Origin: Escherichia coli
GTDB taxonomy: Bacteria; Pseudomonadota; Gammaproteobacteria; Enterobacterales; Enterobacteriaceae
Assembly (NCBI RefSeq): GCF_044324875.1
Contig: NZ_CP172185.1
Direction: 5' to 3' (one strand)
DNA length: 64,000 nt
The notes beneath the pieces were generated by a model. That model saw nothing but the letters and a program-made list of their open reading frames with translations, was not told the DNA's origin and ran no database searches. Position numbers and translations under genes: made by a program. Every line of letters begins with the position of its first letter. Position 1 is the first letter of the stretch. Of this stretch, positions 58,461 through 61,920 are shown piece after piece.

Positions 58461-59129
58461 TCCTTCCTCAATCTTGAGTAACCCCGTCGTTGAAGGGTTA
58501 CTCAATTCATCCTGATTATACGCACTGTCATGGTGCAACTGCTTCAAATTAAAACTCTGGTCTGACTTCAAATAATTATCATATTATTTATTTGCGTAAC
58601 GGGATATCAGAAAAAGATATTTAGCCCATTAATTTATTAGGATGTTTACATCGGATTTGTGATTAAGCGTGGTATTATTTATTAGCGAAACGTTTCTCTC
58701 TTGATTTTTTTGCGCATTTATCAATTTTTCTTATTTTAAATTTACAATACCTTTGGCGATTGACTTCTCTTTGGGGTGATCTATAGCCGTTAACTGACTG
58801 TTTTATGAGAAAAAGTGATATAACTTTTTATTCATTGCATAGCAGAAAATGTGATATTGCACGCACTATGTAATAACTTCTCCCACTGGCCTGGAACAAC
58901 TGAACTTATTGAACTATGTTAGAAAATACGTCAGTTTAAGTATCTGCCTGAACTGGCAAGGTTAAGCACAATGATATATCGGCGCGTATTCCGTTGCATA
59001 AGTGTGCAAAAAAAGTGGAAGACGTATCGAGATTTGTGCGTCTGATCGAGACATGTTTAAAAATGGCTTGCCATAATTAACGTTGTATGTGATAACAGAT
59101 TTCGGGTTAAACGAGGTACAGTTCTGTTT

Positions 59130-59273
59130 ATGTGTGGCATTTTCAGTAAAGAAGTCCTGAGTAAACACGTTGACGTTGAATACCGCTTCTCTGCCGAGCC
59201 TTATATTGGTGCCTCATGCAGTAATGTGTCAGTTTTATCTATGTTATGCCTGCGGGCGAAGAAAACAATCTAA
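59130..59273 (+). CDS. yobF: Small protein YobF
   Basis: Not in the ORF track; 47-aa [50 protein letters not shown] read from the sequence, immediately upstream of cspC. Confidence 0.8.
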
Positions 59274-59285
59274 GGAATTTTTCAA

Positions 59286-59495
59286 ATGGCAAAGATTAAA
59301 GGTCAGGTTAAGTGGTTCAACGAGTCTAAAGGTTTTGGCTTCATTACTCCGGCTGATGGCAGCAAAGACGTGTTCGTACACTTCTCTGCTATCCAGGGTA
59401 ATGGCTTCAAAACTCTGGCTGAAGGTCAGAACGTTGAGTTCGAAATTCAGGACGGTCAGAAAGGTCCGGCAGCTGTTAACGTAACAGCTATCTGA
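59286..59495 (+). CDS. cspC: Cold-shock-domain protein CspC
   Basis: 69-aa ORF with RNP motifs KGFGFI and VFVHF. Confidence 0.95.
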
Positions 59496-59541
59496 TCGAA
59501 TCCACTGATCTGAAGTGTGAATACGCTTCAATCTCGCTATA

Positions 59542-59568
59542 AAGCCTCGTCGAATGCGAGGCTTTTTA
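59542..59568 (+). terminator. Rho-independent terminator after cspC
   Basis: AAGCCTCG-TCGAATG-CGAGGCTT followed by a T-run. Confidence 0.55.
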
Positions 59569-59660
59569 CTTTGCTTTATCTTCGCTCCAGTCGTTCGGAT
59601 ATTTGCCCGCCGCGTGATTCGCGTTACACTTGCGGCCTTTAGTGTCCTGCCGGAGTTGTC

Positions 59661-60470
59661 ATGTCGTTTTCCTGTCCACTTTGCCATCAGCCTCTTTCGC
59701 GTGAAAAAAACAGCTATATCTGTCCCCAGCGACATCAGTTTGATATGGCGAAAGAAGGGTATGTCAATCTGCTGCCCGTTCAGCATAAACGGTCTCGTGA
59801 TCCGGGGGACAGCGCGGAAATGATGCAAGCACGCCGCGCATTCTTAGATGCCGGACATTATCAGCCGCTGCGTGATGCAATTGTCGCTCAACTGCGGGAA
59901 CGGCTTGATGAAAAGGCCACAGCGGTGCTGGATATTGGCTGTGGTGAAGGGTATTACACACACGCATTTGCCGATGCGCTGCCCGAAATCACCACGTTTG
60001 GCCTGGATGTCTCGAAGGTAGCGATAAAAGCGGCGGCGAAACGCTATCCGCAGGTCACTTTTTGTGTTGCTTCCAGCCACCGTTTGCCGTTTTCCGATAC
60101 CAGTATGGACGCCATAATACGTATTTACGCGCCGTGTAAAGCAGAAGAATTAGCGCGAGTAGTGAAGCCTGGCGGTTGGGTCATTACTGCCACGCCGGGA
60201 CCGCGACATTTGATGGAGCTGAAGGGGCTGATTTACAATGAAGTACATCTTCATGCACCACATGCAGAACAACTGGAAGGTTTTACATTACAGCAGAGTG
60301 ATGAGTTGTGTTATCCGATGCGTCTTCGCGGTGATGAAGCCGTCGCATTATTGCAGATGACGCCGTTTGCCTGGCGTGCGAAGCCAGAAGTCTGGCAAAC
60401 ACTGGCAGCAAAAGAAGTGTTCGACTGCCAGACGGACTTTAATATTCACCTCTGGCAGCGTTCTTATTAA
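59661..60470 (+). CDS. rlmA: 23S rRNA m1G745 methyltransferase RlmA
   Basis: 269-aa ORF with N-terminal Cys4 zinc finger (CPLCHQ...CPQRH) and SAM-binding motif [10 protein letters not shown]. Confidence 0.9.
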
Positions 60471-61033
60471 CCGTGGAAGTGCGTCCAGAGGATCTGGACG
60501 CCGATGCCGATCAGCACCAGCCCGCCGAGAATTTCCGCTTTTTTCCCAATAATTGAGCCGATAAAGCGACCAACCATCATCCCTAATGTCGACATAATCA
60601 AGGTTGCACAACCAATGGCCAATGCGGTCGCGATAATGTTGACCTGAAGGAAAGCAAGACCAACACCCACAGCCATGGCATCCAGGCTGGTGGCAATCGC
60701 GGTGGTTACCAGTAGCCAGAAACCGTGCCGACGGCGCGGCTCTTCATCTTCATCATCAGCGCCACGAAAACCCTCAATAATCATTCGCCCGCCGAGGAAT
60801 ATCAGCAGCACAAACGCAATCCAGTGGTTCCATTCAAGGACAAACCGGCTGGCTAACATGCCCATTCCCCAGCCGATCAGCGGCGTCAGGGTTTCGACAG
60901 CACCAAAAATAAGGCCGGTTCGCAACGCTTCAGAAAATTTCGGTTTATGGAGGGTGGCACCTTTACCGATTGATGCAGCAAATGCATCCATCGACATACC
61001 AAACGCAAGAAGAATAGTAGCAGTGATATTCAT
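60467..61033 (-). CDS. mntP: Manganese efflux pump MntP
   Basis: ORF 60467..61087; internal Met [25 protein letters not shown] gives 188 aa; stop overlaps rlmA stop. Confidence 0.85.
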
Positions 61034-61039
61034 GACAAC

Positions 61040-61258
61040 GTCCTGACCGGGGTATCCATAAAACACATCATCGCCCCCAGCAAACATGCATACATGAACG
61101 ACAAACCGCGATGGTTTTCGCGTTCATGCAGGCATAGCGATTGATGTGCATATGGTCTCGCCTGACTGAAAGTGTTCAGTCCGTACGTGCCACGTTTTGC
61201 AACGAGTATGTTGACACGTACATTTCCGGAATCTGGAAATCGGCTACTCCCCAAATGA
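61040..61258 (-). ncRNA. yybP-ykoY manganese riboswitch in the mntP 5' leader; ends approximate
   Basis: Minus-strand sequence contains GGGGAGUAGCCGAUUUCC near the 5' end, typical of the yybP-ykoY aptamer; the E. coli mntP leader is known to carry this riboswitch. Confidence 0.65.
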
Positions 61259-61461
61259 GGGCGCAACCTTAACATATTTTGAGAATATAAAACAACTGTT
61301 GGAATATATTATTTCATTGCTTTATTGATAACGATTTTCATTTAGATTTATATATCAATGAAACGTTAAAATAAATAACAAATAAGGGAAGGGGTAATAT
61401 AGCCTAAGCTATGTCTGATTATTAAAAATACACTAAACATAGCTTTGGCTAAATTGATAAC

Positions 61462-61920
61462 TTATTGAGTTGAAACGAGAAGCTTATAAATTTTTTCCAG
61501 ATCGTCGATATTTCGAACGCGGATTAACAGCCGACGCTGTTCTAATTGCATCACCAACACGCCATCTTCCGACAAGTTCATCGCTTTGATTCGGCTATAT
61601 TCAATCCAGACATTGGCGAAGAAAAAACCTTTTTGTTTAAAGATGATCTTCGGAACGCGGATCCAGAATATATAAAAACCCATCAGAGCCAGTGCACTTA
61701 ATAACCATGTTGTTATTAGCGCGCCATGATTCGTGACGTTGTTATAGATAAGAATGACAATCAATCCGACGAAGATAACGCTATCGATGCGACCACGCCG
61801 GAGCAAAGGAATTGCCAGCAGAGTGAGGCCGTTACGGCGGGGCATGATGAACTGATCGTAGATCGCGAAGGCCAGGAGTGCGGCGATGAAAAGAATCAGT
61901 ACCAGGTCCGTGATTGTCAT
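61462..61920 (-). CDS. yobD: Inner membrane protein YobD (DUF986)
   Basis: 152-aa [34 protein letters not shown]... Confidence 0.8.

Follow-up and report, generated by a model that had tools for sequence, protein, structure and literature searches.

What occupies the 428 bp between mntP and yobD (61034-61461), two genes that are both on the minus strand of the 64-kb stretch of Escherichia coli DNA that we analyzed (hereafter the window)? The coding sequence of mntP (60467-61033, minus strand), so named in RefSeq, encodes a 188-aa protein that matches the Mntp family (Pfam PF02659, E 1.3e-55), and on the other side of the gap lies yobD (61462-61920, minus strand; Pfam DUF986, YobD). The gene order is rlmA-mntP-yobD-manZ, with rlmA at 59661-60470 on the plus strand, and the window is inverted relative to K-12. 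The initial annotation found no credible protein gene in the gap, and none is annotated between mntP and yobD in the K-12 RefSeq record. The region is not peculiar to this strain, with bases 60900-61600 showing 100% identity to E. coli 2012C-4502 and being found in 5422 of the 5426 complete E. coli genomes. Our analysis leads us to conclude that the gap is, with high confidence, the complete cis-regulatory region of mntP, laid out on the minus strand and devoid of a protein gene. For its elements, described below, we directly observed presence, position, conservation and covariation.

As for the immediate surroundings of the gap, mntP (minus strand) and rlmA (plus strand) are convergent and overlap by 4 bp at 60467-60470, with their stop codons sharing the palindrome TTAA, which is likewise the case in K-12. 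At 59110-59570 on the plus strand, there is a strong Rfam match to the cspA thermoregulator (RF01766; 139 bits, E 8e-37), which spans the leader and the coding region of a cold-shock-family gene adjoining rlmA. This gene is cspC in K-12, and its product is named CspE by PGAP in 2012C-4502.

The aptamer of the mntP leader

The initial annotation placed a yybP-ykoY Mn riboswitch in the 5' UTR of mntP, and this assignment holds on three counts, namely, a match to RF00080, covariation in four stems, and near-identity to the K-12 leader. The aptamer, delineated using RF00080 and covariation, is a four-way junction that extends from about 61149 to 61257 on the minus strand, immediately 5' of the gene for the Mn2+ exporter (PF02659). 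Its hallmarks, all on the minus strand, are the 5' strand of L1 (GGGGAGUAG, 61252-61244), L3 (CAACAUAC, 61214-61205), and the 3' strand of L1 (GAGACC, 61159-61154). The L1 motif, searched as GGGGAGTAG, has a single occurrence in the 64-kb window, precisely at 61252-61244 on the minus strand, for a chance expectation of 0.17 per window.

The Rfam scan gave a mixed answer. When matches were selected by E-value, RF00080 (Manganese, yybP-ykoY) matched 61164-61260 on the minus strand with 41.9 bits (E 7e-10), the model alignment ending short of the 3' strand of P1, but at the gathering threshold of 45 bits there was no yybP-ykoY match in the gap. Since the experimentally characterized K-12 mntP element scores 41.6 bits, and is thus likewise below 45, the shortfall reflects the model and not the element; in other words, the sub-threshold score is a property of the current Rfam model and not counter-evidence. 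Scores for other mntP leaders are 44.2 in Salmonella, 44.0 in Klebsiella, 40.9 in Enterobacter and 45.9 in Citrobacter, with 46.4 and 53.1 in two Cedecea species. This is of practical value for annotation, as a validated mntP riboswitch is missed by the current Rfam model at default thresholds.

Comparative evidence for the fold comes from 50 distinct enterobacterial leaders, which we aligned and scored for the four-way junction defined from the E. coli sequence. In helices P1.1, P1.2, P2, P3.1, P3.2 and P4, 95.9% of the cells are paired and 18 of the 31 pairs have changed on both sides, with covariation in all four stems of the aptamer. All five measures of pairing beat those obtained with 500 of 500 shuffles, and controls in which the structure was slid along the alignment were 23-45% paired. 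The two strands of L1 and the L3 segment are invariant, or nearly so, across the same leaders.

The closest known system is the leader of K-12 mntP (also known as yebN), which belongs to RF00080, occupies the same locus, displays the same architecture, and scores almost the same (41.6 bits, versus 41.9 for the window). The two aptamers differ at one base in the P4 loop, and the remaining differences are a few changes in the hairpin of the expression platform and one near the Shine-Dalgarno sequence. The mntP leader in the window is therefore a strain-level allele of the K-12 element, and nothing substantive differs. It is on this K-12 leader that the published riboswitch experiments were done (PMC11647493, PMC12153347), and Mn2+ binding and expression switching have been reported for it (PMC11647493, PMC9603457, PMC12153347). 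Taken with the Mn binding established in K-12, our results support the notion that the gap carries the Mn2+ riboswitch of the mntP leader. A second E. coli representative, the Mn/pH riboswitch of alx (ygjT), has an aptamer of the same family and likewise acts at the level of translation; a pairing of its disrupted P1.1/L1 with the ribosome-binding site has been proposed (PMC12153347). However, the junction of alx is three-way and its multi-helix platform contains an intrinsic terminator stem, whereas mntP exhibits a four-way junction, also apparent from covariation here, and a single platform helix (PMC12153347).

Expression platform and ribosome-binding site

Downstream of the aptamer, the minimum-free-energy fold reveals a long helix in which 61155-61137 pairs with 61074-61056 (minus strand). 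The 5' strand of this switch helix, which would form in the Mn-free state, overlaps the 3' strands of P1.1 and L1, and its 3' strand is GCGAUGAUGUGUUUUAUGG. Covariation is again extensive, with 96.8% pairing across the 50 leaders and two-sided changes at 9 of the 17 pairs. In K-12 without Mn, a competing pairing in the expression platform was described to disrupt P1.1/L1 when the transcript is ~205 nt long (PMC12153347), and our switch helix matches the alternative pairing reported there for P1.1. Between the two strands of the switch helix, an inverted repeat and the predicted fold define a variable platform hairpin (61086-61135, minus strand), which is missing or different in many genera. 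Its apex contains ~12 nt (~61109-61120) that other Escherichia species lack, and even within E. coli there is a 1-bp polymorphism in the run of A followed by CC (~61113-61118), where AAAACC becomes AAAACCC. Folding of the single platform helix of mntP was reported to begin at ~175 nt (PMC12153347).

Translation signals are found at the end of the leader, on the minus strand. The start codon of mntP (61033-61031) is preceded by a Shine-Dalgarno AGGA (61044-61041) and, 2 nt 5' of it, by a C-tract CCCCGGU (61052-61046), which together form a segment conserved across the 50 leaders (61041-61052). The C-tract is complementary to two other portions of the leader, the 5' strand of L1 and an invariant internal G-tract CUGGGG (61081-61075). 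Its pairing with the L1 strand (UUGGGG) is possible in 95.4% of cases, covariation being impossible here as L1 is invariant. For the helix between the C-tract and the G-tract, pairing reaches 97.7% and one clade shows compensation at two pairs: the two tracts change together in four species, from Cedecea, Buttiauxella and Enterobacter sp. R1, with ACUGGG/CCCGGU replaced by GUUGGG/CCCAAC in the Cedecea/Buttiauxella clade. This helix and the switch helix are topologically exclusive.

How the aptamer communicates with the ribosome-binding site is less clear-cut. Three thermodynamic predictions, obtained with or without constraining the aptamer, disagree on the ribosome-binding site and draw no consistent picture of its occlusion, and no clear Mn-dependent change in reactivity was seen around this site in vitro (PMC12153347). 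Although we regard it as rather unlikely, the link might be a three-way competition instead of a two-state switch, in which the C-tract would pair either with the 5' strand of L1, once P1.1 has been invaded in the Mn-free state, or with the G-tract. If true, the latter could act as a decoy helix and explain why, in published probing, the ribosome-binding site did not respond to Mn in a simple way. The exact contact that would hide this site is something we infer.

Promoter and operators upstream of the leader

While the initial annotation dealt with the riboswitch, the MntR-like palindromes and the 81-aa ORF, the gap contains more than these, namely, a conserved Fur-like box, a near-invariant core promoter, an AT-rich setting, and the switch helix described above. 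The core mntP promoter corresponds to 61260-61296 (minus strand), which is near-invariant across 77 species, with a probable -10 element (TATGTT, 61276-61271, minus strand) and a weak -35. A 229-nt UTR was reported for mntP (PMC11647493), which puts the transcription start at 61262, and the A11/A48 numbering used in another study (PMC12153347) fits a start at 61258. A simple scan with the sigma-70 consensus, whose four weak matches do not surpass those in shuffles, did not call the mntP promoter, which is consistent with activator dependence. The G+C content in the promoter region is 22-28%, and according to the literature, activation of mntP by MntR and Fur works through relief of H-NS repression (PMC8632737, citing Dambach 2015).

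A Fur-like box is found at 61327-61345 (minus strand CTAAATGAAAATCGTTATC), with 14 of 19 positions matching the Fur consensus GATAATGATAATCATTATC and further, overlapping matches at 13/19 when the register is shifted by 6 bp. Alone, a 14/19 match is weak, as equally good ones occur in 3-5% of shuffles. The box lies inside TAAATGAAAATCGTTATCAAT, a block in which conservation mostly reaches 95% or more in 77 species, and Fur regulation of mntP has been reported (PMC11647493, PMC8632737). As judged from the motif and its conservation, 61327-61345 may well be the Fur site. A further short block between this box and the MntR boxes (TTAACGTTT, 61361-61369, minus strand), at least 95% conserved in 77 species, might represent a second Fur contact or an H-NS contact.

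As for MntR, we searched for what we take to be its operator consensus, an 8-4-8 palindrome of the form AACATAGC-N4-GCTATGTT. This consensus matches the upstream region of K-12 mntH with no mismatch and the start region of K-12 mntS/rybA with three. When up to three mismatches are allowed, there are only two matches in the 64 kb, both in the gap, for 0.28 expected. The proximal box (61396-61415, plus strand AATATAGCCTAAGCTATGTC) and the distal box (61436-61455, plus strand AACATAGCTTTGGCTAAATT) each have two mismatches and are centered ~144 and ~184 bp upstream of the transcription start, respectively. The TAGC-N4-GCTA core of the proximal box is kept in all of the 78 species compared, and that of the distal box occurs at this position in 70 of them. 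Both boxes are nearly fixed in distance from the L1 motif of the riboswitch, and 40 bp apart here (40-45 bp elsewhere). The half-sites (ATAGC / GCTAT) are conserved at 95% or more, and the 4-nt spacer varies freely. Eight of the 78 species have no recognizable distal box at the expected position; in Escherichia albertii, the spacer is 5 nt instead of 4.

These boxes are related to, but not the same as, what the initial annotation described, which was two half-palindromes at 61406-61449 resembling halves of an MntR operator. Both nonamers that it quoted are present and MntR-like (AAGCTATGT at 61406-61414 and ACATAGCTT at 61437-61445, plus strand), which means that the interval given ended 4 nt too far, and both lie in a 19-nt inverted repeat with 89% complementarity. 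However, while the motif supports MntR-like sites, these do not form one split palindrome with a 22-bp gap, but two complete 20-bp operators. Each box has one degenerate half, with the weaker partner located 4 bp from the well-matched one, and our results support a reading in which the half-palindromes would be the better halves of two complete MntR operators at 61396-61415 and 61436-61455. Motif and conservation are what identifies the mapped boxes as probable MntR sites, and MntR is known to activate mntP (PMC11647493, PMC8632737). The outcome of the comparison is a clean two-operator map, conserved across ~78 enterobacterial species. The same 8-4-8 palindrome, AACATAGC-N4-GCTATGTT, is common to these boxes and to the operators of mntH and mntS. 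Whereas the latter genes have a single box at the promoter or start site, which according to the literature is used for repression, mntP has two boxes 144-184 bp upstream of the start, which are associated with activation. In K-12, the gene for a small protein, YpeD, is now annotated across the MntR operator of mntH, outside the window.

Together, these elements suggest how mntP would be controlled. Upstream, two MntR operators 40 bp apart, ~144 and ~184 bp from the start site, would be followed by the Fur-like box, ~75 bp from it, and then by the weak, near-invariant core promoter in DNA with 22-28% G+C. Transcription, according to the literature, would be raised by Mn-loaded MntR and by Fur, through relief of H-NS silencing. 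The resulting leader of ~225-229 nt would begin with the four-way-junction aptamer of the yybP-ykoY family. When Mn2+ is bound, L1 and L3 would dock, keeping the P1.1 helix closed. When Mn2+ is absent, the strand at 61074-61056 would invade the 3' strand of P1.1/L1 (61155-61137), forming the long alternative helix, which would leave the 5' strand of L1 free and the translation of mntP low. Rho would then terminate transcription in the untranslated leader, as published work has shown that it does unless Mn turns on translation (PMC11647493). In this scheme, Mn binding, the action of MntR, Fur and H-NS, and Rho termination would carry over from the published experiments on the near-identical K-12 region; the mntP riboswitch, control by MntR and Fur, silencing by H-NS, and Rho termination are already published for E. 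coli K-12.

Leader translation and RNA hairpins as alternative readings

Could part of the leader instead be translated, as a leader peptide coupled to mntP? Three products come into consideration: an 81-aa ORF (61030-61275, minus strand), the TGA of which overlaps the mntP ATG as ATGA; a 40-aa "hypothetical protein" (WP_000547919.1) that PGAP places over the leader, and RefSeq lists, in about 3 of 12 sampled genomes; and a nine-codon ORF that starts at AUG 61059 and whose stop overlaps the mntP start (AUGA). In addition to the existence of these frames and overlaps, 75 of the 78 species have an AUG 26-28 nt ahead of mntP. However, none of the three withstands comparison. The 81-aa ORF would start (ATG at 61275) upstream of either candidate transcription start and is broken in most genera: across 78 species, the stretch open in the same frame ranges from 0 to 103 codons and reaches at least 80 almost only in Escherichia, and the P2 loop, the P4 loop and the platform have indels whose lengths are not divisible by three. 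Even in E. coli, a 1-bp insertion in the hairpin apex shifts the frame in strain CFSAN061771. Variable columns are spread evenly over codon positions 1/2/3 (31/34/35), unlike in the first 243 nt of mntP from the same genomes (36/14/73), and the codon-like substitution across 61030-61275 that, according to the initial annotation, would have spoken for a gene is not seen. There is no Pfam family for this ORF, nor for a plus-strand 43-aa ORF, and no annotation in K-12. Frame breakage and the lack of codon-position bias thus vindicate the earlier view of the 81-aa ORF as non-coding; this frame does not represent a gene and should be ignored in ORF tracks. The 40-aa protein has a simple origin, since it is the 1-bp insertion converting AAAACC to AAAACCC that joins two frames and makes PGAP call it; it exists only through this insertion, and annotators should be aware of it in strains carrying it. 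As for the conserved AUG, each of the three possible frames relative to mntP is represented (in 28, 22 and 25 species), which excludes a conserved upstream ORF, and this AUG lies within the covarying switch helix, where UAUGG pairs with CCAUA. A leader peptide or upstream ORF coupled via the ATGA overlap was rejected on these grounds, and we consider translation of any part of the leader extremely improbable.

The remaining alternatives invoke hairpins. The inverted repeats upstream could be an RNA hairpin, e.g., a terminator or stabilizer of yobD, and not protein operators, since the two boxes form a 19-nt inverted repeat directly 3' of the yobD stop codon and there are weak matches to hairpin-type Rfam families such as mir-282 (E 0.02-0.09). 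We dismissed the weak miRNA-family matches (61385-61466) as artifacts of the inverted repeat generated by the two MntR boxes. An RNA hairpin is hardly credible on several grounds: there is no U-tract after the repeat, no terminator is called there, the motif also occurs at the mntH and mntS promoters, and the fixed distance to the riboswitch ties the boxes to mntP. Moreover, half-sites that are conserved in sequence and do not covary, free spacers, and a fixed distance are the signature of a protein site, not of an RNA hairpin. A different hairpin would be at play if the riboswitch acted mainly via an intrinsic terminator in the leader, not via translation and Rho. A hairpin resembling a terminator (CGCGAAAACCAUCGCG, then GUUUGUCGUU) is indeed called at 61122-61107, but it lies within the ~12-nt insertion missing from other Escherichia species, in a segment absent from many genera, its U-tract is poor, and a translational switch with Rho-dependent termination has been published (PMC11647493). 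This makes an intrinsic terminator very unlikely as the main output of the riboswitch, and the hairpin at 61122-61107 was rejected as a conserved feature, as it sits in an E. coli-specific insertion. We therefore retain the reading of the gap as the cis-regulatory region of mntP, with two MntR operators upstream and a riboswitch that would act on translation.

The frame of mntP itself is open for 18 codons further upstream, up to an ATG at 61087, which produces a mechanical ORF of 206 aa (60467-61087, minus strand). The start of the 188-aa protein nevertheless appears to be the credible one, because the extension overlies a strand of the switch helix and the Shine-Dalgarno sequence, and its frame is not conserved. 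In 22 species (Enterobacter/Lelliottia and others), the AUG of the switch helix, located 27 nt upstream, is in frame with mntP. Nineteen of these read through into mntP, with three stopping after 5 codons, and automatic annotators could add a false nine-residue N-terminal extension to MntP (MDIPGLDAV-MNIS...) in those species.
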